Below are positions 2,328-53,779 of a DNA stretch of 64,000 nucleotides, in pieces. Source of the stretch: Escherichia coli. Lineage in GTDB: Bacteria; Pseudomonadota; Gammaproteobacteria; Enterobacterales; Enterobacteriaceae. The notes below the pieces were generated by a model. That model did no database searches. It was not told the DNA's origin and saw nothing but the letters and a program-made list of their open reading frames with translations. A program made the translations under genes and the position numbers. The stretch lies in NCBI RefSeq assembly GCF_009931435.1, contig NZ_CP043414.1; one strand, 5' to 3'. How positions within the stretch are numbered: position 1 is the stretch's first letter; each line of letters starts with the position of its first letter.

Positions 2328-2385
2328 TGCGAAGATGCCCGGCGTGGATCCCGCCGGGCATAATCCCAGAAATTCGCTTCTGGCT

Positions 2386-3708
2386 TTATAACCGATGAAA
2401 TTTTGCCAGTAAGGCCAGTGAAAATGTTGTCAGCAAAATGGTAATGACTGCGTAAATATACACTCCTGACCATTCCCAACTGTTTTTCACCATAATAACT
2501 GGAAGCCCTGCCATTGCCGCGCCTAAATAACTAAACAAGCCCCTGAATCCAGTAATGGAACCTGCCGCATCTTTATGCGTAACATCAAGACACCCGACAG
2601 CGAATAACATATGCGGTCCATACAATGCAAACCCCATGATTGTAAACAGAATAGCCGTTAATGTGTAGGAGACGTCCTGCACCAGCGGTACGAGAACGAT
2701 GCAAATACATAAAGCGATGGCAAAGATTAATCCTGTCATCCAGCGGTTACTTTTAAACATGAAATCGGACAAGTACCCCGCCAGTAATCCCCCAGCAAGT
2801 CCACCTGCTTCAAACCAGGATATAATGGAGTTCGCTTTAATCAGGCTCCAGTTATGAACCTGAGAATAATAAATTTGTGGCCAGTCATTGAGGATGGTGC
2901 GTGCAATATAGACCGACATATCCCCGAGGATAATGAGCCAAACTAATGGGTTGGTAAGAATATATTTAACGAATATTTGCCAAAAACTGAGATCAACCGG
3001 ACTTGCTTTAACTTGTGCAAGTTCTGTCGGGTCGTTGCGCCACTTACCGACGTTAGGCAAACCGAGCGTGCCGGGACGATCTTTTATCGTAAACAAGGCA
3101 ACAATCCCCATAATCAGTGAGATTACACCCGGAACATAAAAGCCCATCTTCCAGCTGCCACTAAAAGCAATAGCAAAGCTTGTCAGGAGAGGCGCAAGAC
3201 TACCGCCAATATTATGCGCAGCTTCAACAACTGCCCACCAGCGTCCGCGTTCATTTTTCGAGAACCACGAGGCCATAATTTTTGCCATTGGCGGAAAACT
3301 GGTACCCTGGAGAATAGCATTAAGGCTATACAGGATATAGAACGCAGCAACGCTGTCTGAAAAACCGAAAAGAATGTTAACAATACCGACGCCAATAAGT
3401 ACGGGGCCAGTCATCGCTCTTGGGTTAATTTTATCGACTAACATGCCACCTACAAACTTCATGGAGCCATAAAGAATGTAAAAGACCGACGACATGATAG
3501 CGAAATCTTGTGCGGTTAATGACGTATCCGTTAACATCGCTGGCATGGCCGCAGAGAAATTCTTGCGGGTTAAGTAAAATACGGCATAAGAGATAAATAC
3601 AGAGGTGATGATTTCAATGCGAAATTTTTTATAAGTATGATCAACTTCTTCTTTTGGTTTGACCACCGGTTGGTCGGCCTGGCTGAAAATAAATTTTTTC
3701 AAACTCAT
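2386..3708 (-). CDS. MFS organophosphate:phosphate antiporter (OPA family; GlpT/UhpT/PgtP-like)
   Basis: 440-aa ORF aligning by eye with GlpT along its length (YLTRKNF, WFSKNERG, GPHMLF-type motifs); RBS aagga 7 nt upstream; AT-rich codon usage. Confidence 0.85.
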   Translation of the reverse strand: MSLKKFIFSQADQPVVKPKEEVDHTYKKFRIEIITSVFISYAVFYLTRKNFSAAMPAMLTDTSLTAQDFAIMSSVFYILYGSMKFVGGMLVDKINPRAMTGPVLIGVGIVNILFGFSDSVAAFYILYSLNAILQGTSFPPMAKIMASWFSKNERGRWWAVVEAAHNIGGSLAPLLTSFAIAFSGSWKMGFYVPGVISLIMGIVALFTIKDRPGTLGLPNVGKWRNDPTELAQVKASPVDLSFWQIFVKYILTNPLVWLIILGDMSVYIARTILNDWPQIYYSQVHNWSLIKANSIISWFEAGGLAGGLLAGYLSDFMFKSNRWMTGLIFAIALCICIVLVPLVQDVSYTLTAILFTIMGFALYGPHMLFAVGCLDVTHKDAAGSITGFRGLFSYLGAAMAGLPVIMVKNSWEWSGVYIYAVITILLTTFSLALLAKFHRL

Positions 3709-3740
3709 TGTGAGTTTCCTTTTCTGTGAACCTTATGGCG

Positions 3741-4628
3741 CTATAATTTTTCTTCTATAAAAAAGAGAAGCGACTCGAAACCATTAAAATTAATCTGGTC
3801 AGCAATTTTTTCCCGGGTTTTAGGTTTTGCTTTCCATGCCACGCCATTTCCGGCATGCAAAAGCATAGGAATATCATTGGCACCATCTCCACAGGCAATG
3901 ATGTTTTCACGGCAGATAGCTAACTCTGTCGCTAAATTTATCAGGGTTTGCTTTTTCTTTTCTGCATTCATAATAGGTAAGGTAATTGTATCAGTTAACA
4001 GATCTTCCTTAATGCGCACAGAGTTAGAAAATGCAAAATCAAGTTGATATTTTTCCTTCAATCGCTCAGTAAAAATATCCAAACCTCCAGATATAATTGC
4101 CGTCTTGAATCCTTTTTCTTTTAGTATGGGAAGAATAGTTTCAAGACCTGGTGAAAGAGTCATCTGTTCACAAACTTTATGCAATATATCTTTATGCGTT
4201 CCTTTAAGCATGGCAATTCGCCGGGTAAAACTGGCATCAAAATCGATTTTCCCTTCCATCGCTTCACGGGTCAGTGCGGTGATTTTTTCAGAGATGCCGA
4301 GTCTACGGGCTATTTCATCGACACCTTCTTCTTCAACAAAGGTGGAATCCATATCAAAGGCAATAATTCCCTGATCCGGTAAGACCTTGGGTTTACGGAA
4401 AAAATCAAACTGATGATTATCAGCACGGTGACGTAAACCAGCATAAAAAGCAGGGTTGGTAACATCATCTGGTAATACTAGCTTTAGATACTCTTTATTT
4501 ATTTGCCCACTGTAATTCGTTGTTAGCGAAAACACCGAGGGGGAAATCTTTAAATGTTGCAGATAATCTTCCAGACATTTTTGGGTGATGTCGATGCCTG
4601 TTGGCGACAAGAAATAAATAATCGTCAT
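3741..4628 (-). CDS. HAD-superfamily phosphatase, phosphoserine phosphatase (SerB)-like
   Basis: 295-aa ORF with HAD motif I FDMDST and motif IV GDGANDIPM; RBS aaggag upstream. Confidence 0.8.
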   Translation of the reverse strand: MTIIYFLSPTGIDITQKCLEDYLQHLKISPSVFSLTTNYSGQINKEYLKLVLPDDVTNPAFYAGLRHRADNHQFDFFRKPKVLPDQGIIAFDMDSTFVEEEGVDEIARRLGISEKITALTREAMEGKIDFDASFTRRIAMLKGTHKDILHKVCEQMTLSPGLETILPILKEKGFKTAIISGGLDIFTERLKEKYQLDFAFSNSVRIKEDLLTDTITLPIMNAEKKKQTLINLATELAICRENIIACGDGANDIPMLLHAGNGVAWKAKPKTREKIADQINFNGFESLLFFIEEKL

Positions 4629-4722
4629 TTACCGCTCCTTTTTATCTGCAATGATTATAATAAGATTTCATAGAGGCTGATGTATCTGACAATCACAGTT
4701 GTGAATGTTAAATAAAAGATAA

Positions 4723-4785
4723 AAAAGTACTTTTTTTGATACTTTGAAATAATAAGATACTAAAAGTACCATTTTTGATATCTTT
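4723..4785. promoter_or_regulatory. Two ~24-bp direct repeats (AAAAGTACnnTTTTTGATAyyTT) in the divergent promoter region of the island
   Basis: Repeat 1 at 4723-4745, repeat 2 at 4762-4785, 16 bp apart, between the divergently oriented phosphatase/transporter and dehydratase/XRE genes. Confidence 0.35.
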
Positions 4786-4838
4786 ACCAGGATATAAAGA
4801 ATAACTATTTTTCAACGTTGAAGGAATCATTTACAAAT

Positions 4839-6191
4839 ATGGAAAGCTGCATAGATATATTCAAGATAGTTATTGGTCCATCCAGTTCCCGCACAGTCGG
4901 GCCAATGCGTGCGGCTTATAATTTTGTGTCACAATTGAAACAGCAAGAAATGTTACCTTTGTTGCGGAAAATTGATGTCGAACTTTATGGTGCGCTGTCA
5001 TTAAGCCGCAAGTGCCATAATGTTGATGTGGCGATTTATCTCGGTTTGCAAGGACACTTACCTGACAGCGTTGACATTCGCATGGAAATGTCCGCCATCA
5101 GGCGTGCAGAAACTGAGGCGACGCTGGAAGTTATGCCTGGTGTCAACGTCAGTGTATCCATTCTTTCTAATCTACAAGCGCATCCGGGGCACCCTTATGC
5201 GATGACATTTCGTGCCAGAGATGACTGGTTTACACTTTATGAAGAAACCTGGTTTTCTATCGGCGACGGTCAAGTGCTAAAAGCAGGAGAGGCGATTATT
5301 CCTCCATCAGTCACTCCACATCCTTTTGAATTCCAGAACGCAAACGAATTATTAAAACTTTGTCAGCAAAACGGATTATCTGTCGCGGCATTAATGATGA
5401 AAAACGAACTGCACTGCCAGACAGCAGCTTTTTTGCATGACGATCTTCATAAAAAATGGGAAGTAATGAAGGATGCGGTTTATCGCGGGATGCATACAGA
5501 AGGATTACTTCCAGGTCCGTTTCAGGTTAACCGTCGTGCCTGTGCTTTATATAAATCGTTGCAGTCAAAGGGGTTTTCCAATGACTTCCTGACTACGCTC
5601 AATTGGGTCAATACTTTTGCCATTGCGGTGAGCGAAGAAAATGCTGCGGGTGGACGTGTCGTGACAGCACCCACCAACGGCGCGAGCGGTATTATCCCGG
5701 CTGTACTGTGCTGGTATGATAAATTCATTCACGAGCTTGATACATACTCCGTTACCCGCTTTTTACTGACCGCTGGTGCCATCGCCATTCTGTTCAAAAA
5801 AAATGCCTCTATTCTGGGTTCTGAAGTTGGATGTCAGGGGGAAATAGGTGTTGCCAGTTCAATGGCGGCAGCAGGATTAGCAGAACTTATGGGCGGGTCA
5901 GTGGCTCAGGTACTTAGCGCGGCAGAAATTGCGATGGAGCATCATTTAGGTTTGACCTGTGATCCAGTTGGCGGGCAGGTACAAATTCCTTGTATTGAAC
6001 GAAATGCTATTTCAGCTGTGAAAGCTATCAACGCAACGACGATGGCGTTGAGTCGCATAAGCGAGCCGTGCATTACGCTGGATGAGATAATTTCCGCGAT
6101 GTATGAAATCGGAAAGGATATGAGCGCTAAATACCGTGAAACTTATCATGGCTGTCTGAGCAAATTGCAGCCAAGAAAAAAGGATGCGTAA
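4839..6191 (+). CDS. Fe-S L-serine dehydratase (SdaA/SdaB/TdcG family)
   Basis: N-terminal [17 protein letters not shown] and internal [31 protein letters not shown] match SdaA signature blocks. ATG at 4839 chosen over the track's TTG at 4818 because of the aagga RBS. Confidence 0.85.
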
Positions 6192-6192
6192 G

Positions 6193-6582
6193 ATGAAATA
6201 TAATACGATGAATAACAACGAAATTATTTTATCACTGTGCGCTCGCATTAAAGAAACGCGTATCTCATTATCATTGACCCAACAGCAGTTAGCCGAGCGT
6301 GCATTGGTGGGCATAGCAACGGTCAAGCGGATTGAAAAGGGGGGAAGTTTAAATCTTGATACTCTCATTTCTCTTCTGCGCGCGCTGAATAAATTGCAAA
6401 ATCTCGATGCCATATTGTTCGAAGCAGAAATGCGTAATTTCAACGAAAATAGTTCCAGCGGCGAAGGGGCAGGGCGACTACAGGTACGCCAGCAACTGAC
6501 AGATTTAAACCAGAAGTCTCCAGCCCCGCACGCAGATGACCATAATTTTAGTACGGCGCTGGAAAATACCCTCTGCTGGTGA
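6193..6582 (+). CDS. XRE-family helix-turn-helix transcriptional regulator
   Basis: 130-aa ORF with HTH block LSLTQQQLAERALVGIATVKRIEKG; aagga RBS 8 nt upstream of ATG at 6193; last gene of the island. Confidence 0.7.
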   Translation: MKYNTMNNNEIILSLCARIKETRISLSLTQQQLAERALVGIATVKRIEKGGSLNLDTLISLLRALNKLQNLDAILFEAEMRNFNENSSSGEGAGRLQVRQQLTDLNQKSPAPHADDHNFSTALENTLCW

Positions 6583-7452
<870 letters not shown>

Positions 7453-14599: not shown

Positions 14600-14656
14600 A
14601 TTGCCGGATGCGCCGCATCCGGCAATCGGTGCCAAATGCCGGATGCGACGCTGGTG
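14600..14656. repeat. REP-like palindromic units (tgccggatgcgccgcatccggca, gccggatgcgacgc)
   Basis: Characteristic GCCGGATGCG REP core in the convergent mglC/preA intergenic region. Confidence 0.5.
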
Positions 14657-17410: not shown

Positions 17411-18487
<1,077 letters not shown>

Positions 18488-18519
18488 TGATGCGACGTTT
18501 ATCAGTGTGTCAGACCTGA

Positions 18520-19446
<927 letters not shown>

Positions 19447-20702: not shown

Positions 20703-20796
20703 TTAATTCGTAAAACGTGCTACCGATCACATTAAGAATTCTCAGCATAGTTGAATTACAGGGAAGTAACATCGGGCGAGTGCCCAGTTCAGCACA

Positions 20797-21705
20797 CTAA
20801 TTCTGCTGTAAAAAGTGCAGAAACTGACTTAAAGCATAAGAAGGCGTTTCGTTATTACGCCAAAACACACCGACGCTGCCTTTCTGTTCAATCTTTGGCA
20901 GGTTGAGGATCACCAGTTGCCCCTGGCTGGCATAACGTTGCGCCAGGCGTAATGACAAAATAGAGATCATATTGCTGCTTTGTAACAGGTTGGTACTGAC
21001 GTTCATCGACGCCGACTCAATCGTGTTTTCTGGCAGCATCACGCCGTGGTCTACCAGCGCATTATCAATGCTGATGCGGATGGGGGTACCTGTCGGCCAG
21101 ACTATCCACCGCCAGTTAGCAAGATCATTCCAGCTGAGGGTGGCGTATTTCGCCAGTGGATGCTCAGGACGGGCGACAAAGCATACCGGCTCGGTGTAGA
21201 GCACGCGATAATTCAGCGGCAACTGCAACGCGCGACCGCCAATTCGCCCAACCACCACATCGACAGAACCTGCCAACAGATCTTGCAGCAATGGGGTCAT
21301 CACCTTCTCTTCGATATTCAGGTGTAGAGTTGGCATCTCCTTGAGCAAATGCAAAATCGCCTGGGATACGCAGTCAGTGGCGACGGGAGAACAGCCAATT
21401 TTCAGACTGCCGACCAGTCCACCTTGTTTAAAGCGAGCCAGTTCATATTGCGATCTTTCCATGTCATTGATTAACCGTTGGGCATGTTGCAATAACAATT
21501 TGCCGCCTTCGGTCGGACGAAGCCCTTTGCTGTGCCGCTCAAAAAGTGTGAGTCCGATCTCATCTTCCAGTTGTGACAACCATTTCGAAAGCGCGGGTTG
21601 GGTGATATTCATCATCCGTGCGACATGGGTTAGATTGCCCTGTTCACCCAGCGCCACCAGCATTTGCAGGTGATGTAGTTTTAGTTTTTGCGCCCAGTTC
21701 GCCAT
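20797..21705 (-). CDS. LysR-type transcriptional regulator of the gentisate cluster (MhbR-like)
   Basis: N-terminal HTH (LTHVARMMNITQPALSKWLSQLE); strong RBS tggagg 9 nt upstream of the ATG at 21705; divergent from the transporter gene. Confidence 0.85.
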   Translation of the reverse strand: MANWAQKLKLHHLQMLVALGEQGNLTHVARMMNITQPALSKWLSQLEDEIGLTLFERHSKGLRPTEGGKLLLQHAQRLINDMERSQYELARFKQGGLVGSLKIGCSPVATDCVSQAILHLLKEMPTLHLNIEEKVMTPLLQDLLAGSVDVVVGRIGGRALQLPLNYRVLYTEPVCFVARPEHPLAKYATLSWNDLANWRWIVWPTGTPIRISIDNALVDHGVMLPENTIESASMNVSTNLLQSSNMISILSLRLAQRYASQGQLVILNLPKIEQKGSVGVFWRNNETPSYALSQFLHFLQQN

Positions 21706-21831
21706 TTGCCATAACCTCCAGGTTATCTCTCTGCCCGAAATGCCATTGTACATCTCATCTCTTTAATCACATTATCGCAACATATACAAAACAAAAGAAA
21801 CATCTACCTTACCTGCACTGAGGCATTTACT

Positions 21832-23190
21832 ATGACTCAACGACGTGATTTACAAGCACTTATCGATGCCGCTCCGGTCGGCAAGATGCAGTGGCGCGTT
21901 ATCATCTGCTGTTTTCTGGTGGTAATGCTCGATGGTTTTGACACCGCGGCTATCGGCTTTATCGCCCCTGATATTCGCACTCACTGGCAGCTCACCGCAG
22001 GCGATCTCGCCCCGCTTTTTGGTGCGGGTCTGCTGGGATTAACCGCAGGCGCACTGCTTTGTGGCCCGTTGTCCGATCGCTTTGGTCGCAAGCGGGTGAT
22101 TGAGCTGTGCGTCTTTTTGTTTGGCGCGTTAAGCCTCGCCTCGGCTTTCTCACCGGATCTGCAAACGCTGGTCTTCCTGCGCTTTCTCACCGGCCTGGGT
22201 CTGGGCGGCGCGATGCCGAACACCATCACCATGACCTCGGAGTATCTGCCTGCCCGCCGCCGCGGCGCGCTGGTGACGCTGATGTTTTGCGGCTTTACGC
22301 TGGGTTCGGCGTTTGGCGGGATTGTCAGTGCGCAGCTGGTGCCGGTGATTGGCTGGCACGGCATTCTGGTGTTGGGGGGCGTGTTACCGCTGATGCTGTT
22401 TGTCGCACTGCTGGTAGTTCTGCCGGAATCGCCACGCTGGCAGGTGCGCCGCCAGCTACCGCAGGCGGTGATTGCGAAAACCGTCAGCGCCATCACCCGC
22501 GAGCGTTATGTCGATACCCACTTTTATCTCATTGAATCAGCCTCCGTTACAAAAGGCAGCATTCGTCAACTGTTTATGGGACGTCAGTTACCCATTACGT
22601 TGATGTTGTGGGTAGTGTTCTTTATGAGCCTGCTGATTATTTACCTGCTCTCAAGCTGGATGCCAACGCTGTTGAACCATCGCGGCATAGACCTGCAACA
22701 CGCGTCCTGGGTCACCGCCGCGTTCCAGATTGGCGGTACGTTGGGCGCGCTGGCGCTGGGCGTGCTGATGGATAAGTTCAATCCTTTCCGCGTGCTGGCG
22801 CTGAGCTATGCCGTAGGCGCTGTATGCATCGTGATGATTGGCTTAAGCCAGGATGGATTATGGCTGATGGCGCTGGCGATTTTCGGCACCGGCATTGGCA
22901 TTAGCGGATCTCAGGTGGGGTTGAACGCGTTGACCGCAACGCTCTACCCAACGCAAAGCCGCGCCACGGGCGTGAGCTGGTCAAACGCCGTAGGCCGCTG
23001 CGGCGCGATTGTCGGCTCGCTTTCTGGCGGCCTGATGATGGCGATGAATTTCTCTTTTGACACCCTGTTTTTCATTATCGCTGTGCCCGCGGCGATCAGT
23101 GCGGTGATGTTAAGCCTGCTGATCACCGTGGTTCGCCAGTCGACCTCTGTCCCTGACTCACTGCCTCGCGCAGGCGTTGTGAACGAATAA
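21832..23190 (+). CDS. MFS aromatic acid:H+ symporter (3-hydroxybenzoate transporter MhbT-like)
   Basis: 452-aa ORF, 12 predicted transmembrane segments, MFS motif [11 protein letters not shown]. Confidence 0.85.
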
Positions 23191-23201
23191 GGAGCATCCT
23201 A

Positions 23202-24230
23202 ATGACTGATAACAATCAAAAAAGCCGCGAGCAATTTTATCAGCATATTTCCGGGCAAAACCTGACCCCGCTGTGGGAGTCACTGCACCACCTGGTGCCG
23301 AAAACGCCCAACGCTAACTGTGCGCCAGCGTACTGGAATTATCAGGAGATCCGCCCGCTGCTGCTGGAGAGCGGCAGCCTGATTGGCGCGAAAGAAGCTG
23401 TGCGTCGTGTGCTGGTACTGGAAAACCCGGCGCTGCGCGGGCAGTCTTCCATTACCGCGACTTTATATGCCGGTTTGCAACTGATCATGCCGGGCGAAGT
23501 GGCACCGAGTCATCGTCATAATCAGTCGGCGCTGCGTTTTATTGTTGAAGGCAAAGGGGCATTTACCGCCGTTGATGGCGAACGCACGCCAATGAATGAG
23601 GGCGATTTTATCCTGACCCCACAATGGCGCTGGCACGATCACGGTAACCCTGGCGACGAACCGGTTATCTGGCTCGATGGACTGGATCTGCCATTAGTGA
23701 ACACTCTGGGCTGCGGTTTTGCCGAAGATTACCCGAAAGAGCAACAACCGGTAACGCGTAAAGAGGGGGATTATCTGCCGCGTTATGCCGCCAATATGTT
23801 GCCGCTGCGCCATCAGACGGGTAACTCCTCACCGATCTTTAACTATCGTTATGACCGTAGCCGCGAAGTGCTGCACGATTTAACCCGCCTGGGCGATGCC
23901 GACGAGTGGGATGGCTACAAAATGCGCTATGTCAACCCGGTCACCGGCGGCTATCCGATGCCGTCGATGGGCGCCTTCCTGCAACTGCTACCGAAAGGGT
24001 TCGCCTCCCGCGTGGCGCGTACCACTGACAGCACTATCTACCATGTAGTGGAAGGTAGCGGACAAGTCACCATCGGCAATGAAATCTTCACCTTTAGTGC
24101 AAAAGATATCTTTGTGGTGCCGACCTGGCACGGCGTGTCATTCCAGACTACGCAAGATACCGTTTTATTCAGTTTTTCGGACAGACCGGTACAAGAAGCC
24201 CTGGGGCTGTTCCGCGAAGCGCGTTATTAA
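23202..24230 (+). CDS. Gentisate 1,2-dioxygenase (bicupin)
   Basis: 342-aa ORF; cupin His motifs ([10 protein letters not shown]...WRWHDHGN) match the recalled gentisate dioxygenase family. Confidence 0.85.
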
Positions 24231-24245
24231 TTTGGGAGAGAGAAA

Positions 24246-24947
24246 ATGACTCAATATGTATTCGAACCACAAGCGCCCGTTACCGTACCGGTTGTTGGCA
24301 GTGATGAACAATTCCCCGTGCGCCGCGTTTACTGCGTTGGGCGTAACTATGCCGCCCACGCCCGCGAAATGGGCTTTGATCCGGATCGTGAACCCCCCTT
24401 CTTCTTCTGCAAACCAGCAGATGCCGTTGTTCCGGTCGCCGCTGGCGAAACGCTGGCGCTGCCGTATCCGGCGCAGACCGATAACTATCATTACGAAATT
24501 GAACTGGTGGTGGCGATTGGTAAAAAGGGCAGCGATATCCCACTGGAAAAGGCCCATGAATATGTCTGGGGTTATGCCACAGGCCTTGATATGACGCGCC
24601 GGGACCGTCAAATGGAAATGCGTCAGATGGGCCGCCCGTGGGAAATCGGCAAAGCATTTGATCTCTCGGCCCCCATCGCACCGCTGCACAAAGCCAGCGA
24701 AACCGGCGGTATTGATAACGCACCAATCTGGTTACAGGTAAACGGTGAAGATCACCAGCGCAGCGATATTCGGCATTTGATCTGGTCGGTGAATGAAACC
24801 ATCAGCTACCTGTCAGGCTTCTTTGAGCTGCAACCGGGCGATCTGATCTTCACTGGTACGCCAGAAGGGGTGGGCCCGGTAGTGAAAGGTGATGTGATCA
24901 CGGGCAACGTCGAGGGCTTAACCCCTATCGCGGTGAAGATTGTCTGA
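24246..24947 (+). CDS. Fumarylpyruvate hydrolase (FAH family)
   Basis: 233-aa ORF with fumarylacetoacetate hydrolase-family blocks ([21 protein letters not shown]). Confidence 0.8.
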
Positions 24948-24955
24948 GGTGCATG

Positions 24956-25600
24956 ATGAAGCTGTACAGTTTTTTTAATAGTTCAGCATCGTACCGGGTA
25001 CGCATTGCGCTGGCGCTGAAAGGCATTAATTACCAGACCGAAGGGGTGAATATCCGTATTGGTCAGCAAAATGAACTGGCCTATCGGCGGATGAATCCTG
25101 TCGGGCTGGTGCCGACGCTGCTGACTGACGAGGGCGAGTCACTCGGTCAGTCGCTGGCGATTATTGACTGGCTGGATCGTCACTACCCGCAAGTTCCGCT
25201 GGTGCCGCAGGAAGAACCGGCCCGCAATAAGGTGCTGGAAATTGTCTATGCCATCGCCTGTGATATTCATCCATTGAATAACCTGCGCGTGCTGCGCTAC
25301 CTGACCGAAGAGCTGAATGTCAGTGAAGAAGAGAAAAAACGCTGGTATGCGCACTGGATCCAGCAAGGGTTAAGCGCGGTGGAACAGCTACTGCGCCAGA
25401 GCCAGTCGGGGCAATTTTGTGTGGGTGAGACGCCGACGCTGGCAGACTGCTGCCTTGTTCCGCAGTGGGCGAACGCGCTACGTATGAACTGCGATCTGAG
25501 TGGATATCCGCGCTGCAAAGCGGTGTACGACGCCTGCACACAACTGCCAGCGTTCATTGCCGCAGCGCCAGAAAATCAACAAGATAAAATTTCAGCCTGA
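24956..25600 (+). CDS. Maleylpyruvate isomerase (GST zeta / maleylacetoacetate isomerase family)
   Basis: N-terminus MKLYSFFNSSASYRVRIALALKGI typical of zeta-class GST; second ATG chosen for RBS spacing. Confidence 0.8.
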   Translation: MKLYSFFNSSASYRVRIALALKGINYQTEGVNIRIGQQNELAYRRMNPVGLVPTLLTDEGESLGQSLAIIDWLDRHYPQVPLVPQEEPARNKVLEIVYAIACDIHPLNNLRVLRYLTEELNVSEEEKKRWYAHWIQQGLSAVEQLLRQSQSGQFCVGETPTLADCCLVPQWANALRMNCDLSGYPRCKAVYDACTQLPAFIAAAPENQQDKISA

Positions 25601-25614
25601 CCAGGAGAACCATA

Positions 25615-26808
25615 ATGACTAAAGTGACACGCGCAGTAATTGTGGGAGGCGGGATCGGCGGTGCGGCAACTGCGCTGTCACTGGCCCGCCAGGGGATCAA
25701 AGTGGTGCTGCTGGAAAAGGCGCATGAGATCGGTGAGATTGGCGCAGGTATCCAGTTGGGGCCAAATGCGTTTTCGGCGTTGGATAGTCTTGGTGTTGGC
25801 GAAATCGCCCGCCAACGTGCAGTATTCACCGATCACATCACCATGATGGACGCGGTGAACGCCGAAGAAGTGGTGCGTATTGAAACCGGGCAGGCCTTTC
25901 GTGACCATTTCGGCGGCCCTTACGCGGTGATCCACCGCGTTGATATTCATGCCTCGGTGTGGGAAGCGGTACTGACGCATCCGAACGTGGAGTATCACAC
26001 CTCCACAAACGTCGTTGATATTCGCGAGACGCCGGACGATGTCACCGTTTTCGACGATCGAGGTAATAGCTGGAGCGGCGATATTTTGATTGGCTGTGAT
26101 GGCGTGAAGTCAGTGGTGCGCCAGAGCTTATTAGGCGATGCGCCGCGCGTCACCGGTCATGTGGTCTACCGTGCGGTTATCGATTGTGCGGATATGCCGG
26201 AAGATTTACGTATTAATGCGCCGGTATTGTGGGCGGGTCCGCACTGTCACCTGGTGCATTATCCTTTGCGCGGCGGCAAGCAGTATAACCTGGTGGTGAC
26301 ATTCCACAGTCGCCACCAGGAAGAGTGGGGCGTGAAGGATGGCAGTAAAGAGGAAGTGCTTTCCTATTTTGAAGGCATTCACCCGCGTCCTCGCCAGATG
26401 CTGGATAAACCGACGTCATGGCGACGCTGGTCAACGGCCGATCGTGAACCGGTAGGGAAATGGGGGACTAACCGCATTACGCTGGTGGGCGATGCGGCCC
26501 ATCCGGTGGCGCAGTATATGGCACAAGGTGCCTGTATGGCGCTGGAAGATGCAGTCACGCTGGGTAAGGCGCTGGCGCAGTGTGAGGGTGATGCGGCGCA
26601 AGCTTTTGCGCTGTATGAGTCGGTACGTATTCCGCGTACCGCGCGCATCGTCTGGTCGACCCGTGAAATGGGGCGGGTTTATCACGCCGCAGGGGTAGAA
26701 CGTCAGGTACGTAACCTGCTGTGGAAAGGGAAATCGCAGGCAGAGTTTTATCGCGGCATGGAGTGGCTGTACGGCTGGAAAGAAGATAACTGTCTGCAAC
26801 CACGCTGA
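25615..26808 (+). CDS. FAD-dependent aromatic monooxygenase (3-hydroxybenzoate 6-hydroxylase-like)
   Basis: N-terminal GGGIGG FAD-binding fold and GDAAHP motif; final gene of the gentisate cluster. Confidence 0.85.
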   Translation: MTKVTRAVIVGGGIGGAATALSLARQGIKVVLLEKAHEIGEIGAGIQLGPNAFSALDSLGVGEIARQRAVFTDHITMMDAVNAEEVVRIETGQAFRDHFGGPYAVIHRVDIHASVWEAVLTHPNVEYHTSTNVVDIRETPDDVTVFDDRGNSWSGDILIGCDGVKSVVRQSLLGDAPRVTGHVVYRAVIDCADMPEDLRINAPVLWAGPHCHLVHYPLRGGKQYNLVVTFHSRHQEEWGVKDGSKEEVLSYFEGIHPRPRQMLDKPTSWRRWSTADREPVGKWGTNRITLVGDAAHPVAQYMAQGACMALEDAVTLGKALAQCEGDAAQAFALYESVRIPRTARIVWSTREMGRVYHAAGVERQVRNLLWKGKSQAEFYRGMEWLYGWKEDNCLQPR

Positions 26809-26837
26809 GTACTTCTTACCCAATCAGGTGCACGGAC

Positions 26838-26880
26838 GGTCCCCTCGCCCCTTTGGGGAGAGGGTTAGGGTGAGGGGAAA
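26838..26880. repeat. GC-rich compound palindrome (cccctcgcccctttggggagagggttagggtgagggg), terminator-like
   Basis: Nested inverted repeats seen directly after the monooxygenase stop. Confidence 0.4.
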
Positions 26881-26967
26881 AATCTTGCCCGAATTAATCA
26901 GTAAGTCAGTTTGTCTGCAAACACCAGAGGCGCTAACATAGCGCCTCATTTTTTTGCGGGTGATGAT

Positions 26968-27915
26968 ATGCGTGTGTTACTGGCGCCGATGGAGGGTGTA
27001 CTCGACTCTCTGGTGCGTGAATTGCTGACCGAAGTTAACGACTACGATCTGTGCATCACCGAGTTTGTCCGCGTGGTGGATCAACTGCTGCCGGTAAAAG
27101 TTTTTCATCGCATTTGCCCGGAGCTACAAAACGCCAGCCGAACGCCATCCGGTACGCTGGTGCGCGTGCAATTGCTGGGTCAGTTCCCACAATGGCTGGC
27201 AGAGAACGCCGCCCGTGCGGTGGAGTTAGGTTCCTGGGGCGTGGATCTTAATTGCGGCTGTCCGTCGAAAACGGTTAACGGTAGCGGCGGCGGGGCGACA
27301 CTACTCAAAGATCCTGAACTCATCTACCAGGGTGCAAAAGCGATGCGTGAAGCTGTACCGGCGCATTTGCCCGTCAGTGTGAAAGTGCGCCTGGGCTGGG
27401 ACAGCGGTGAGAAGAAATTTGAAATCGCCGATGCGGTTCAACAGGCTGGCGCTACGGAGTTGGTGGTGCATGGGCGGACAAAAGAGCAGGGTTACCGCGC
27501 GGAGCATATTGACTGGCAGGCGATTGGCGAGATTCGCCAACGGCTGAATATTCCGGTGATTGCCAACGGTGAAATCTGGGACTGGCAGAGCGCGCAACAG
27601 TGTATGGCGATAAGCGGCTGTGACGCGGTGATGATTGGTCGCGGAGCGCTCAATATTCCCAATCTGAGCCGAGTGGTAAAATATAACGAACCGCGAATGC
27701 CGTGGCCGGAGGTGGTTGCTTTGCTACAAAAATATACCCGTCTGGAAAAGCAGGGCGATACCGGGTTATATCACGTTGCGCGGATTAAACAGTGGTTGAG
27801 TTATTTGCGTAAAGAATACGATGAAGCAACAGAATTATTTCAGCATGTTCGGGTGTTGAATAATTCCCCTGATATTGCAAGGGCTATTCAGGCAATTGAT
27901 ATCGAGAAACTCTAA
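26968..27915 (+). CDS. dusC: tRNA-dihydrouridine(16) synthase DusC
   Basis: N-terminus [33 protein letters not shown]; start trimmed from the track ORF. Confidence 0.9.
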
Positions 27916-28371: not shown

Positions 28372-28594
28372 TGGCGTTCCTTTATTTGTGAGTGTCGAAT
28401 AAGTATAGGAAAAAACGAAGCCCTTTGCCGTTACTCATAAGTGATTAAGATAAATCGGAGAATATCATTCACTTACTGTATATTTTTCTGAATATGTCGT
28501 TTTATTGCCACTGATGTATTGCCACGCGAAACTAAAAAATATATTGCATCACACGGTAATCTCCGCGCACCTTTTCTTACCTGACTATTCCTCC

Positions 28595-30031
28595 ATGAAT
28601 CGTGATTCCTTTTACCCAGCCATCGCCTGTTTTCCTCTGTTACTGATGCTGGCCGGGTGTGCACCTATGCATGAAACCCGCCAGGCGTTAAGCCAGCAAA
28701 CACCCGCTGCGCAAGTTGACACCGCATTACCCACGGCGCTGAAAAATGGTTGGCCAGACAGCCAATGGTGGCTGGAGTATCACGATAATCAACTTACTTC
28801 ATTAATTAACAATGCACTGCAGAACGCACCGGATATGCAGGTGGCTGAACAGCGCATTCAGCTGGCTGAAACCCAGGCGAAGGCAGTTGCCACTCAGGAT
28901 GGCCCTCAGATCGATTTTTCTGCGGATATGGAGCGGCAAAAAATGTCGGCAGAAGGGCTAATGGGGCCGTTTGCTCTGAACGATCCTGCCGCAGGTACGA
29001 CCGGTCCGTGGTACACCAATGGTACTTTTGGCTTAACGGCGGGCTGGCATCTTGATATTTGGGGAAAGAATCGGGCGGAGGTTACTGCTCGCCTCGGTAC
29101 GGTTAAAGCACGGGCGGCGGAACGCGAGCAAACCCGCCAATTGCTGGCTGGCAGCGTAGCCCGCCTGTACTGGGAGTGGCAAACCCAGGCAGCGTTAAAC
29201 ACTGTTTTGCAGCAAATCGAAAAAGAGCAGAACACCATTATCGCGACCGATCGCCAGCTATATCAGAACGGGATTACTTCTTCAGTTGAAGGTGTGGAAA
29301 CCGATATTAATGCCAGCAAGACCCGGCAGCAGCTCAACGATGTCGTGGGAAAAATGAAAATTATTGAGGCACGGTTAAGCGCACTTACAAATCACCAGAC
29401 AAAGGCATTGAAGCTTAATCCGGTCGCGTTGCCGAAAGTGGCAAGCCAGCTTCCTGATGAACTGGGGTACTCCTTACTGGCCCGGCGGGCAGATTTGCAG
29501 GCGGCGCACTGGTACGTTGAGTCATCGCTAAGCACCATTGATGCGGCAAAAGCGGCATTTTATCCTGACATCAACCTGATGGCCTTCCTGCAACAGGATG
29601 CGTTGCACTTAAGCGATTTGTTCCGTCATTCCGCGCAGCAAATGGGCGTTACGGCAGGCCTGACGCTACCCATTTTCGATAGTGGTCGTCTTAACGCCAA
29701 CCTGGATATCGCGAAAGCCGAAAGCAACTTGTCGATCGCCAGCTACAACAAAGCGGTGGTTGAAGCGGTGAATGATGTGGCGCGGGCTGCCAGTCAGGTT
29801 CAGACATTGGCCGAGAAAAACCTGCATCAGGCGCAAATTGAACGCGATGCCTTACGTGTGGTAGGTCTTGCACAGGCGCGCTTTAACGCGGGCATCATTG
29901 CCGGTTCCCGCGTCAGCGAAGCCAGAATCCCGGCGCTGCGTGAGCGTGCCAATGGCCTGTTATTGCAAGGGCAGTTGCTGGATGCCTCCGTTCAACTAAC
30001 CGGGGCGCTGGGCGGGGGGTACAAACGTTGA
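28595..30031 (+). CDS. mdtQ: Outer membrane efflux lipoprotein, NodT/OprM family (MdtQ), apparently intact
   Basis: 478-aa frame from MNRDSFYPAIACFPLLLMLAGC (lipobox LAGC) with no internal stops. Confidence 0.85.
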   Translation: MNRDSFYPAIACFPLLLMLAGCAPMHETRQALSQQTPAAQVDTALPTALKNGWPDSQWWLEYHDNQLTSLINNALQNAPDMQVAEQRIQLAETQAKAVATQDGPQIDFSADMERQKMSAEGLMGPFALNDPAAGTTGPWYTNGTFGLTAGWHLDIWGKNRAEVTARLGTVKARAAEREQTRQLLAGSVARLYWEWQTQAALNTVLQQIEKEQNTIIATDRQLYQNGITSSVEGVETDINASKTRQQLNDVVGKMKIIEARLSALTNHQTKALKLNPVALPKVASQLPDELGYSLLARRADLQAAHWYVESSLSTIDAAKAAFYPDINLMAFLQQDALHLSDLFRHSAQQMGVTAGLTLPIFDSGRLNANLDIAKAESNLSIASYNKAVVEAVNDVARAASQVQTLAEKNLHQAQIERDALRVVGLAQARFNAGIIAGSRVSEARIPALRERANGLLLQGQLLDASVQLTGALGGGYKR

Positions 30032-30845: not shown

Positions 30846-30886
30846 CGCAGTGAGGTGCGTGGTTGTTTCAATGGGTAATCTTTGGT

Positions 30887-30966
30887 AGGCATGATAAGAC
30901 GTGCAAGCGTCGCATCAGGCATGGTGCGACGGATGTCGGATGCGGCGCAAACGCCTTATTCTAGGC
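30887..30966. repeat. BIME/REP cluster
   Basis: Multiple gcatcaggc/ggatgcggcg REP cores between convergent yohF and yohD. Confidence 0.5.
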
Positions 30967-32309: not shown

Positions 32310-32482
32310 AAAGTTCTTTTGTGTTGCATTGCTGGCGTAAATGTCAGCAATGCAGCATTTCCTCACGATTCTCCTTTGACGATCGCACTTTTTGCTCGTT
32401 ATGATGGCGTCGCTAGCCTCAGTAAATCCTTACTCCGGCGGTGCGCAACCCGTGCGCGTGAACCACTATCTGAATGCTCATC

Positions 32483-33415
32483 ATGCCGAAATTTCGAGTT
32501 TCTTTATTTAGCCTGGCCCTGATGCTGGCTGTGCCTTTTGCACCACAGGCCGTTGCGAAAACGGCAGCCGCTACCACCGCTTCACAGCCGGAAATTGCCT
32601 CCGGTAGCGCGATGATTGTTGATCTGAATACCAACAAAGTGATCTATTCGAACCACCCGGATTTGGTGCGTCCGATTGCGTCTATCAGTAAATTAATGAC
32701 CGCGATGGTTGTGCTGGATGCACGATTGCCGCTGGATGAAAAACTGAAAGTGGATATCAGCCAGACGCCGGAGATGAAAGGGGTCTATTCGCGCGTACGA
32801 CTGAACAGCGAAATCAGCCGTAAAGAGATGCTGTTGCTGGCGCTGATGTCTTCAGAAAACCGCGCGGCGGCAAGCCTTGCGCACCATTATCCCGGTGGTT
32901 ACAAAGCCTTTATTAAGGCGATGAATGCGAAAGCGAAATCGCTCGGAATGAACAACACGCGCTTTGTTGAACCGACCGGATTGTCGGTGCATAACGTTTC
33001 AACTGCCCGTGACTTAACCAAACTGCTCATTGCCAGCAAACAATATCCGTTGATTGGTCAGTTAAGTACTACCAGGGAAGATATGGCAACCTTCTCTAAC
33101 CCGACGTATACGCTGCCGTTCCGCAATACTAACCATCTGGTGTATCGCGATAACTGGAATATTCAGTTAACCAAAACCGGCTTTACCAATGCGGCGGGCC
33201 ATTGTCTGGTGATGCGTACGGTTATCAATAATAAACCGGTGGCGCTGGTAGTGATGGATGCGTTTGGCAAATATACCCATTTTGCCGATGCCAGCCGCCT
33301 GCGTACCTGGATTGAAACCGGTAAAGTGATGCCTGTTCCGGCAGCAGCGTTGAGCTATAAAAAACAAAAAGCCGCCCAGATGGCGGCGGCGGGGCAGACG
33401 GCGCAGAACGATTAA
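32483..33415 (+). CDS. pbpG: D-alanyl-D-alanine endopeptidase PBP7
   Basis: Signal peptide [25 protein letters not shown]; SISKLMT (SxxK) active-site motif. Confidence 0.9.
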
Positions 33416-33416
33416 G

Positions 33417-33590
33417 GGTAGGCAGGATAAGGCGTTTACGCCGCATCAGGCATTCGGAGCACAATGCCTGATGCGATGCTTGCGCATCTTATCAGGCCTA
33501 CAAACGTGACGCGTCCGTAGGCAGGATAAGGCGTTCACGCCGCATCCGGCATTCGGTGCACGATGCCTGATGCGATGCTTCTATTTGCAT
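33417..33590. repeat. BIME: at least three REP units
   Basis: Repeated ggataaggcgtt(t/c)acgccgcatc and gcctgatgcgatgct cores seen directly. Confidence 0.6.
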
Positions 33591-33607
33591 CAGACATCCA
33601 GCCGTAT

Positions 33608-35323
33608 TTACTCCACTTCCTGCCAGTTTTTCCGCTTACTGGTTTTACCGATCCCCGGATTCATGCTGTTGGTCGGATCGTTCTCGCGATAGAACTTCTG
33701 CAACGTCTCCGGTGCTTTATACAAATGACCGACGTTATGCTCGGCAGGGTATTGCGCGCCGCGCTGCTGTAGCAGTTCCAGCATCTGTTCTTTCAACGCA
33801 TGCACATCCACGCCTTTTTTAACGATGTAATCCTGATGGAAGACATAGCACATAAAATGGCCGTAATAGAGCTTGTGCACCAACTGACTGTCGATCTCCG
33901 GCGGTAAATGCTCATACCATTCGGTGTCGTTACGCCGCAGAGCGATATCCAGCGCCAGAATGTCTTCGACTTCATCGGAATGCACGGCCTGATAACGAAT
34001 TGCTGCGCCCGCAGCGGCGAAACGGTGTAAAAACGCTTTGCTGCCTTCCTCCGGCGTACAGACAAAGAAATCGCCCTCGGCCTGTTTGAAATAATCCACC
34101 AGCCACGATTTAGCTTCGCCGACGCCATCGCCCGCCATTTTTAACAGCAGATGATGTTCATATTTATCGCGCCAGCTTTTCATACGCGGTGGTAAATGGC
34201 TGGGGAACAGGTGACCGAATTTTTGCATCGCACGGTCGGTAAAATGCGGACGGAAGAATTTCACTTTCTCCAGCATCGCATCGGTGCGTCCCTTGAGATT
34301 AAAGAAGAACGGCATCTTGTCGGTGCCTAACTTATCAATCATCAGGAAGGTGTCTTTGCCGTATTTTTCCGCGATATCGTAGATATCCCGGTGCATATAT
34401 TCCCCGGCAACCGGCAGGTTCTCGAAATTAGCCAGGATATGGCGGCGGATTTCGGTCAGTACTTCCGGCTGGTTGGTGCCGATATAAAACACCTGCTGAT
34501 TTTTTTCTGCTTCGAAGGTATCAAGACGTACCGCAAAGACGGCCAGTTTACCGGCGCAACCGGAGGATTCAAACAGGCGATCCGGGTCGGCGTTATAACG
34601 TGCGGGTGTGTCGGCTTCAATATCACGAACGCGGTGGACATAGTCATAATCGTGGGCGTGACGACCATCGTGGCGCACATCGTCATCTTTGATGCGATCG
34701 TCATCCAGCTTGCTAAGGATCTGCTCCGGCGTTTCGCCGAGATCAATCCCCAGATGGTTCACCAGCGTCAGTTTGCCGTCTTCATTTATACGCGCGAATA
34801 ACGACATTTCGGTATACGCCGGGCCACGCTGCACCAGCGAGCCGCCGGAGTTGTTACAAATACCGCCGATGACCGATGCGCCTATACACGATGAGCCAAT
34901 CACCGAGTGCGGTTCGCGTCCCAGCGGTTTGAGGGCTTTTTCCAGCGAATAAAGCGTGGTGCCCGGATAGGCCAGCACCTGTTCGCCCTTGCCAAGAACG
35001 TGCAGCTTGTCGAGACGCAGGGTGCTGATGATCACGATATCGCGATCATAGTCGTTACCGTTTGGCGTCGAGCCTTCGGTCAGACCTGTATTGGCAGCCT
35101 GCATCAGAATAATTTTGTCGGCGGTGACGCAGGCTTTCAGCACCCGCCACAATTCCAGTAGTGAGCCAGGGAAAACGACAGCCAGCGCGTCGCCCTGACC
35201 AGAACGGAAGCCCTTGCGATAGCGGGCCGTTTTTGCGGGATCGGTGAGCAGGTGTGAATGACCGACCAGACGGGCAAGTTCATTCAAAAAGGCTTTATTA
35301 TCAGTTGTTGTCATGGAAGACAT
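33608..35323 (-). CDS. dld: FAD-dependent respiratory D-lactate dehydrogenase
   Basis: 571-aa product starting MSSMTTTDNKAFLNELARLVG; matches recalled Dld. Confidence 0.95.
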   Translation of the reverse strand: MSSMTTTDNKAFLNELARLVGHSHLLTDPAKTARYRKGFRSGQGDALAVVFPGSLLELWRVLKACVTADKIILMQAANTGLTEGSTPNGNDYDRDIVIISTLRLDKLHVLGKGEQVLAYPGTTLYSLEKALKPLGREPHSVIGSSCIGASVIGGICNNSGGSLVQRGPAYTEMSLFARINEDGKLTLVNHLGIDLGETPEQILSKLDDDRIKDDDVRHDGRHAHDYDYVHRVRDIEADTPARYNADPDRLFESSGCAGKLAVFAVRLDTFEAEKNQQVFYIGTNQPEVLTEIRRHILANFENLPVAGEYMHRDIYDIAEKYGKDTFLMIDKLGTDKMPFFFNLKGRTDAMLEKVKFFRPHFTDRAMQKFGHLFPSHLPPRMKSWRDKYEHHLLLKMAGDGVGEAKSWLVDYFKQAEGDFFVCTPEEGSKAFLHRFAAAGAAIRYQAVHSDEVEDILALDIALRRNDTEWYEHLPPEIDSQLVHKLYYGHFMCYVFHQDYIVKKGVDVHALKEQMLELLQQRGAQYPAEHNVGHLYKAPETLQKFYRENDPTNSMNPGIGKTSKRKNWQEVE

Positions 35324-35518
35324 TTTCCACTCCTTGTGGTGGCGAAAAAATATCACAAACTAGCATAGCGCCTTGTATGACAATTCAGCGAGTGAATATT
35401 TTGAAAATTCAGACAATAAACTGAGCATTCTTTTTCTCTCTCCATCATGCTTATGGCAAACTACGGTTTTTGCACCATTTTCGCTGCCTCGTCGGGCAAC
35501 AGAGGAAGAATAATCCAT

Positions 35519-37825: not shown

Positions 37826-37950
<125 letters not shown>

Positions 37951-53086: not shown

Positions 53087-53169
53087 AAAAAAACCTGCTG
53101 GTGAGGCAGGTTCTTTTATTTACTACTTTCAGGCCTAACACCACGGCCTGTGCAACATCGTGTTCCAAC
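53087..53169 (-). ncRNA. orzO: Predicted antitoxin sRNA (OrzO-like), about 83 nt
   Basis: Minus-strand -10 TATAAT at 53176-53181 and -35 TTGCAA at 53199-53204; intrinsic terminator hairpin plus U7 at 53087-53111; 5' region (53151-53169) is near-complementary to the zorO 5' UTR (53317-53335). Boundaries inferred. Confidence 0.4.
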
Positions 53170-53683: not shown

Positions 53684-53779
53684 TAGATCGCAGAAAATAA
53701 AAGAACCTGCTGGTGAGGCAGGTTCTTTTATTTACTACAGTGACGCTAACTTGCTGATTGTGCAACATTTCGTACCAAC
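53684..53779 (-). ncRNA. orzP: Predicted antitoxin sRNA, second copy (OrzP-like)
   Basis: Same architecture as copy 1: -10 at 53786-53791, shared -35 at 53809-53814, terminator hairpin 53694-53714; pairing region 53762-53779 matches the zorP leader 53928-53945. Confidence 0.4.

Follow-up and report, generated by a model that had tools for sequence, protein, structure and literature searches.

REP sequences of the Y, Z1 and Z2 types, the BIME elements that contain them and the differences in their copy number from strain to strain have been known for decades. BIME-2 elements are composed of y and z2 REPs with short linkers, are without the L linker and are present in multiple tandem copies, and BIME number varies between strains (PMC3333891). 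The REP-associated transposase TnpA_REP requires GTAG/CTAC as well as mismatches in the stem, and cleaves TGCC|TGAT and GGCC|TAC in vitro (PMC3333891). A subset of the BIME-2 elements of K-12 is cleaved in vivo by gyrase, with Y REPs being preferred (PMC6379681), and ribosomes are reported to stall, and translation to be lowered, where a REP lies no more than 15 nt from a stop codon (Liang 2015, as cited in PMC12306157). REP325, located between yjdM and yjdN, is a terminator and mRNA stabiliser, and convergent gene pairs with REPs show higher expression genome-wide (bioRxiv 10.64898/2026.03.23.713779). The RNA naRNA4 from REP325 was reported to bind HU and to condense the nucleoid (Qian et al. 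2015; PMC4550694). A 2026 preprint (Harris et al.), among whose authors is the senior author of that earlier work, saw no influence of REP325/naRNA4 on nucleoid volume or on REP-REP contacts and reassigned REP325 to local 3'-UTR regulation (bioRxiv 10.64898/2026.03.23.713779). According to current ideas, REPs between convergent genes are bidirectional terminators and mRNA stabilisers.

We describe here a BIME located between the convergent genes pbpG and dld in a stretch of 64,000 nucleotides of Escherichia DNA (the window). The element is an ordinary copy of a known kind of repeat, and its unusual point is its lineage-limited presence; it is absent from the catalogued BIMEs of K-12 because this locus is REP-free in that strain. 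With considerable confidence, the element is best explained overall as a probably ancestral BIME-2 cluster that was kept in clade I, whose units were varied by recombination or slippage, and which would have a hairpin and partial terminator role in the 3' UTR and is possibly a gyrase site. The finding matters little beyond annotation, the focal unit being already recognised by an existing Rfam model.

The window is collinear with the reverse complement of MG1655 at approximately 2.19-2.26 Mb and represents Escherichia chromosome, with an identity to K-12 of 96.0% over 30 kb. Relatedness was assessed at the mgl locus, which is located 20-27 kb from the pbpG/dld site. At this locus 18 complete genomes labelled "E. 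coli" showed an identity to the window of 98.5-99.0%, whereas the next best genome reached 97.0%. One of the 18 is that of 2013C-4282, a published strain of Escherichia cryptic clade I (PMC10100065). Published ANI values are >98.3% within clade I and >95.9% between clade I and E. coli sensu stricto (PMC10100065). Because the mgl identities fit these values and 2013C-4282 is among the 18 relatives, the window was assigned to clade I, a lineage that we infer from identity and not from a full phylogeny.

The genes pbpG (32474-33415, plus strand) and dld (33608-35356, minus strand) are separated by 192 bp (33416-33607), bounded by the pbpG stop codon TAA (33413-33415, plus strand) and the dld stop codon (33608-33610, minus strand). 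The cluster consists of two direct units of 99 bp (94% identical to each other), in each of which a 12-nt linker joins a Y REP to an inverted Z2 REP, which gives four REPs of 35-37 nt at 33418-33598, all wholly extragenic between the two stop codons. The initial annotation, which had counted at least three units, is borne out by these four REPs (three intact and one truncated); it had picked the right site with a span of 33417-33590, which is slightly short of the cluster.

REP 1 (33418-33452, plus strand; GTAGGCAGGATAAGGCGTTTACGCCGCATCAGGCA) is of type Y with a 5' GTAG and two stem mismatches, and folds into a hairpin of -12.6 kcal/mol (z -3.2). A linker of 12 nt (33453-33464; TTCGGAGCACAA) joins it to REP 2 (33465-33501, minus strand), an inverted Z2 REP (iREP) with a 3' CTAC and the motifs TGCC|TGAT and GGCC|TAC (-20.0 kcal/mol, z -5.8). 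The units are separated by a linker of 15 nt (33502-33516; AAACGTGACGCGTCC). REP 3 (33517-33551, plus strand), again of type Y with a 5' GTAG, has one stem mismatch and is followed by the 12-nt linker of unit 2 (33552-33563; TTCGGTGCACGA) and by REP 4 (33564-33598, minus strand; TGCCTGATGCGATGCTT/CTATT/TGCATCAGACATC), a truncated Z2 iREP that lacks CTAC and still forms a hairpin (-13.0 kcal/mol, z -3.7); its counterpart in the 210-bp alleles of related strains is intact. The GTAG motifs are thus found at 33418 and 33517 and the CTAC motif at 33498-33501; TGCC|TGAT is present in the Z2 iREPs and GGCC|TAC in unit 1. The GTAG of REP 1 begins 2 nt past the pbpG stop codon and its hairpin foot lies 6 nt past it, whereas the hairpin foot of REP 4 is 9 nt from the dld stop codon. 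Both Y REPs have GCAGG in place of the consensus GCCGG, which creates an extra stem mismatch. At base 33594, within the truncated REP 4, the window reads GCATCAGACATCC as compared with GCATCAGGCATCC in all related BIME alleles, and an exact match to the window at this locus was not found in any genome of the collection. None of the ORFs across the BIME is credible, each being short and overlapping the palindromes, and a coding role was rejected.

In a comparison with the REP consensus sequences, the best type for REPs 1 to 3 was Y (plus), Z2 (minus) and Y (plus), respectively, and REP 4 was recognised as Z2 by its intact 5' half and by its intact orthologue in the 210-bp alleles. Folded individually, the REPs reached minimum free energies of -12.6 to -20.0 kcal/mol (z -3.1 to -5.8 relative to shuffles). 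The full Y-Z2 pair has an alternative, longer fold in which Y is paired with Z2 (-46 kcal/mol, z approximately -7 to -8), and the element as a whole is strongly structured whichever strand is folded (plus strand, z -7.5; minus strand, z -7.8). The Rfam model RF02564 (naRNA4; gathering cut-off 59.5 bits) matched unit 1 over its full length (33421-33498, plus strand) with 76.9 bits and unit 2 with 46.7 bits, which is under the cut-off; weaker matches were found on both strands and at three of the other REP sites of the window (sites B, C and E, see below), and the model describes in effect any Y-linker-Z2 REP pair. Covariation among 13 units of the locus was uninformative because the units are too alike (92% column identity): 93.9% of the cells were paired, with one compensatory cell, which is not above shuffles.

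Judged by its sequence, the element is a BIME-2-type member of the classic enterobacterial REP/BIME family. With BIME-2 in the Gilson/Bachellier nomenclature (PMC3333891) it shares the alternation of Y and inverted Z2 REPs, the short linkers of 12 and 15 nt, the tandem copies, a strain-variable copy number, the GTAG/CTAC feet, the stem mismatches and the extragenic position at gene 3' ends, whereas it differs in the GCAGG of its Y REPs and in the truncation of its last Z2. The agreement of the linkers with BIME-2 is one of length. From BIME-1/RIP-RIB elements (Z1, L linker with an IHF site, Y) the element differs in having neither an L linker nor an IHF motif. With REP325/naRNA4 it has in common the Y-linker-Z2 unit and the tandem array in a 3' UTR, but REP325 comprises six units between the tandem genes yjdM and yjdN, compared with two units between the convergent genes pbpG and dld. 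The closest paralogue in E. coli genomes is the BIME between aceA and aceK (approximately 90% identity over 163 nt), which differs in being located between tandem genes of one operon (aceBAK) at another chromosomal position. Sequences matching the pbpG/dld REPs occur at a median of at least 33 places per genome (5425 E. coli genomes).

Regarding the distribution of the element, at least 80% of the BIME was found at the pbpG/dld locus in only 20 of 5426 complete E. coli genomes, including all 18 nearest relatives of the window. The short form, in contrast, was found in 28 of 29 pbpG-dld matches sampled evenly down the ranking (843-847 bp vs 1001 bp), and this REP-free form appears, from these comparisons, to be the one in nearly all 5426 genomes. 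The BIME is a clean presence/absence marker (18/18 in clade I vs 2/~5400 in E. coli sensu stricto). Its alleles comprise a form of 93 bp with one unit, a form of 192 bp with two units and a truncated last Z2 (the window and Z0117EC0005), a form of 210/211 bp with two units and an intact last Z2, and a form of 291 bp with three units. The middle unit of the three-unit allele is a hybrid with the left part of unit 2 and the right part of unit 1, and the only unit of the one-unit allele is a hybrid with the left part of unit 1 and the right part of unit 2. The exact period of 99 bp together with the hybrid units is what unequal recombination or slippage from one unit to another leaves behind, and it is by this route that unit number changes, possibly with the help of TnpA_REP. 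The initial annotation had listed recombination-mediated rearrangement as a candidate role, and this is visible in the alleles of one, two and three units with their exact 99-bp steps; repeat copy number, the comparison of which between strains it had suggested, does differ (one, two or three units, and none in K-12).

The two carriers outside the clade I-like group, GF4-3 (L007) and 6EVA, have a divergent two-unit allele of 211 bp, which could be an old allele that was kept or an import by recombination. The flanks (2 x 290 nt) contain too few differences to place GF4-3 in a phylogeny, and the ungapped comparison used for this purpose breaks on the indels of E. albertii. The last unit of the GF4-3/6EVA allele is similar to its counterpart in E. 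albertii (CATCCGGTGCACG, CTCCATCTG).

Outgroups were identified by scanning genome contigs for the codon pattern of the dld C-terminus, with one genome per species; this yielded three Escherichia loci, the matches leaving out E. fergusonii, Salmonella and the E. coli representative. At the orthologous site E. albertii carries a BIME-2 of 465 bp with one Z2 followed by four Y-Z2 units, i.e. nine REPs in all; on the right it is followed by a flank (...CCATCTGTATCCGGCATCCTGCCGTAT) homologous to that of the 210/211-bp alleles, and its dld-proximal unit contains the GCAGG variant, as do all clade I units. In Escherichia sp. E1V33 the site has that same right flank and a single Z2 REP lacking its centre, and in a third, divergent Escherichia genome it has a single Y-Z2 pair, flanked differently. 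The presence of REPs at this site in three outgroups, combined with parsimony, favours a site that was ancestrally REP-bearing in the genus and a derived K-12 allele. On these three genomes and parsimony, the BIME was probably present before the split of E. coli and E. albertii, kept in clade I and lost in E. coli sensu stricto; independent gains in clade I and in the outgroups are possible, REP sites being hotspots.

The alternative of a recent gain in clade I, by TnpA_REP transposition or gene conversion into a REP-free K-12-like site, is unlikely. It would agree with the REP-free short allele in >99% of complete E. coli genomes, with the availability of the aceA-aceK BIME (90% identity) as a possible donor, and with the motifs needed by TnpA_REP (PMC3333891) that the REPs bear. 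However, the site bears REPs in all of E. albertii, E1V33 and the third Escherichia genome; the right flank GGCATCCNGCCGTAT is common to the window, E. albertii and E1V33; the unusual GTAGGCAGG variant is shared by the dld-proximal unit of E. albertii and all clade I units; and no clean insertion separates the filled from the empty alleles, approximately 25 bp of the K-12 sequence having no counterpart.

The K-12 allele of 37 bp is REP-free and consists of a hairpin with a 9-bp stem, located 7 nt past the pbpG stop codon and followed by TAATTTTTAC, which was scored as an intrinsic terminator for pbpG. When compared with the REP-bearing alleles it gave a z of ~2 (56-84 of 2000 shuffles reached the score), which weakly suggests that the hairpin is itself a decayed REP. 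As a speculative reading of rather low probability, the terminator hairpin of K-12 and nearly all E. coli sensu stricto may be what is left of the ancestral BIME after decay, and the swap of alleles may make 3'-end formation and expression of pbpG and dld heritably different between clade I and sensu stricto strains; if true, a REP cluster would have been turned into a conventional terminator.

Regarding function, the element likely acts in the 3' UTRs of the two genes as a block of hairpins and a partial terminator, and possibly as a gyrase site. Since pbpG and dld converge on it, its hairpins would be transcribed from either side. In the transcripts, they would block 3'-exonucleases locally and may act as partial terminators, possibly Rho-dependent, by analogy with what was shown for REP325; no intrinsic terminator was predicted in 33416-33607, which contains no T-run. 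Since the hairpins begin 6 nt (pbpG) and 9 nt (dld) past the stop codons, in both cases inside the reported 15-nt limit, terminating ribosomes may also be stalled at them, and translation of pbpG and dld may fall; the stable K-12 hairpin at 7 nt is also inside this limit, and the alleles may therefore not differ in ribosome stalling. In the DNA, the Y REPs would be candidate sites of gyrase cleavage. The mRNA 3'-end stabilisation and gyrase binding that the initial annotation had put forward are thus reasonable candidate roles, judging by published work on such elements. Binding of IHF, which the initial annotation had listed among the candidate roles, has no counterpart at pbpG/dld, where no IHF consensus with up to one mismatch was found in 33416-33607, and is plausible only at site E. 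The allelic series, which ranges from a terminator hairpin without REPs to one, two and three units, could serve as a natural test of the roles of REPs between convergent genes.

A quite different function, in which the element is a gene for a naRNA4-like RNA that binds HU, bridges cruciform DNA and condenses the chromosome, is very improbable. The end-to-end match of unit 1 to RF02564 (76.9 bits vs the cut-off of 59.5) and the reported HU binding and nucleoid condensation (Qian et al. 2015; PMC4550694) speak for it, but RF02564 in effect fits any Y-Z2 pair and has weaker matches on either strand and at three further sites (B, C and E), the locus is pbpG/dld and not REP325 (yjdM-yjdN), and no promoter-like site was found in the intergenic region. 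As the nucleoid-condensing role of naRNA4 is itself contradicted by the 2026 preprint, which finds no nucleoid effect (bioRxiv 10.64898/2026.03.23.713779), it was given low weight. A further reading would place the palindromes outside the REP family, as intrinsic terminators of another kind or as inverted repeats arisen by chance. Their position downstream of genes, a usual place for terminator hairpins, might suggest this, but the reading is refuted by a 27-fold enrichment of the REP core, by end-to-end agreement with the Y and Z2 consensus, by tens of recurrences per genome and by the lack of a T-run or terminator prediction in the gap.

The enrichment refers to the core GCCKGATGCG, which has 11 exact matches in the 64-kb window when both strands are considered, compared with 0.40 +/- 0.64 expected from dinucleotide shuffles, none of 100 of which reached 11. 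Exact cores are located at 14603, 14614 and 14638 (site A), at 30911 (site C), at 33442, 33466, 33541 and 33565 (site D, i.e. pbpG/dld) and at 37850 and 37936 (site E), and cores with one mismatch are found at site B (18545) and in the second REP of site C (30935). The remaining exact match (56570) was rejected as a REP and taken as a chance occurrence because it lies within an ORF of 1218 aa and has neither a palindrome nor an inverted partner. When the whole window was scanned with a consensus sequence for each of Y, Z1 and Z2, well-formed REPs were confined to sites B to E, site A being degenerate. The five intergenic sites for which the initial annotation had claimed REP cores thus all contain REP-like sequence (10 exact cores across four of them), and its identification of REP/BIME repeats is upheld by the consensus scan, the shuffle statistics and the Rfam model. 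Its description of the repeats as dense is unjustified, since the density in the window equals the genome average: K-12, with 355 annotated REP elements (PMC4550694) in 4.64 Mb, leads to an expectation of 4.9 per 64 kb, as against 5 observed in the window. That the sites lie mostly between convergent genes holds for mglC/preA, yohF/yohD and pbpG/dld (three of five) but not for cdd->sanA and bglX->osmF, which are tandem. The REP content of the window differs from that of K-12 at four of the five sites, site C being alike, which agrees with the published variation of BIME number among strains (PMC3333891).

Site A (14601-14656), between the convergent genes mglC and preA, comprises a Y palindrome that lacks its centre (14601-14625) and, after a linker of 11 nt, half a REP (14637-14656) directly adjoining the stop codon of preA; the gap measures 70 bp in the window, whereas it measures 242 bp in K-12 and contains four full REPs. 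Site B (18485-18555, plus strand), between the tandem genes cdd and sanA, has a single Y REP without GTAG (18524-18555), 6 nt from the cdd stop codon, and a remnant of approximately 40 bp of degenerate REP-like sequence (18485-18523) that is missing in K-12. Site C (30885-30965), between the convergent genes yohF and yohD, consists of a Z2 REP (30885-30921, plus strand) and an inverted Y REP (30934-30965, minus strand); the pair is conserved in K-12 and matched naRNA4 on the minus strand with 48.4 bits, which is under the cut-off.

Site E (37849-37946), between the tandem genes bglX and osmF, consists of a short Z1-like iREP (37849-37878), a linker of 33 nt and a Y REP (37912-37946) that matches the consensus perfectly; the Z1 assignment is tentative. 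In K-12 only the Y REP is present, the Z1-like REP and the 33-nt linker being additional in the window, and the composite form recurs in 5422 of 5426 genomes at 80-84% identity. By its sequence layout (Z1-linker-Y) the site looks like BIME-1. It resembles BIME-1/RIP-RIB also in a near-consensus IHF motif with one mismatch in the linker (37888-37900), which is not significant on its own (75 such matches in the window vs 55.7 expected). The 3' end of bglX has its own GC-rich hairpin (GGGCGCGACGTCTGCGCCC, followed by TTT; 37826-37849) directly before the Z1-like REP, so that a terminator-like hairpin and a BIME are arranged in series.

No tnpA_REP gene flanked by REPs was found in the window, the ORFs beside the REP sites being housekeeping genes mapped to K-12, and the ORFs of two inserted islands carry other Pfam domains and include no tnpA_REP. 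The single tnpA_REP gene of E. coli is located elsewhere in the genome, and its absence beside the sites is therefore uninformative on mobilisation in trans. The larger of the two segments missing in K-12 (~6.2 kb, 20738-26923) adjoins dusC (26911-27915) and contains a divergent ORF (20797-21753, minus strand) together with genes for an MFS transporter, a cupin-type dioxygenase, an FAA-family hydrolase, a GST-like protein and an FAD monooxygenase; it looks like a catabolic island for gentisate/3-hydroxybenzoate. The other (~4.2 kb, 2344-6587), between cirA and yeiG, contains genes for an MFS transporter (2386-3708, minus strand), a HAD-family hydrolase (3741-4628, minus strand) and an L-serine dehydratase (4818-6191, plus strand).

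Upstream of pbpG, the Peptidase-S11 RNA motif (RF03039, 72.8 bits) was found at 32398-32478 on the plus strand, in the leader directly preceding the gene. The ORF at 28505-30031 encodes an intact outer-membrane efflux protein of 508 aa (Pfam OEP), where mdtQ of MG1655 is annotated as a pseudogene. Two tandem matches to the OrzO-P antitoxin RNA (53087-53162 and 53699-53772, minus strand; 98.9 and 87.3 bits) suggest a duplicated zor-orz type I toxin-antitoxin locus.
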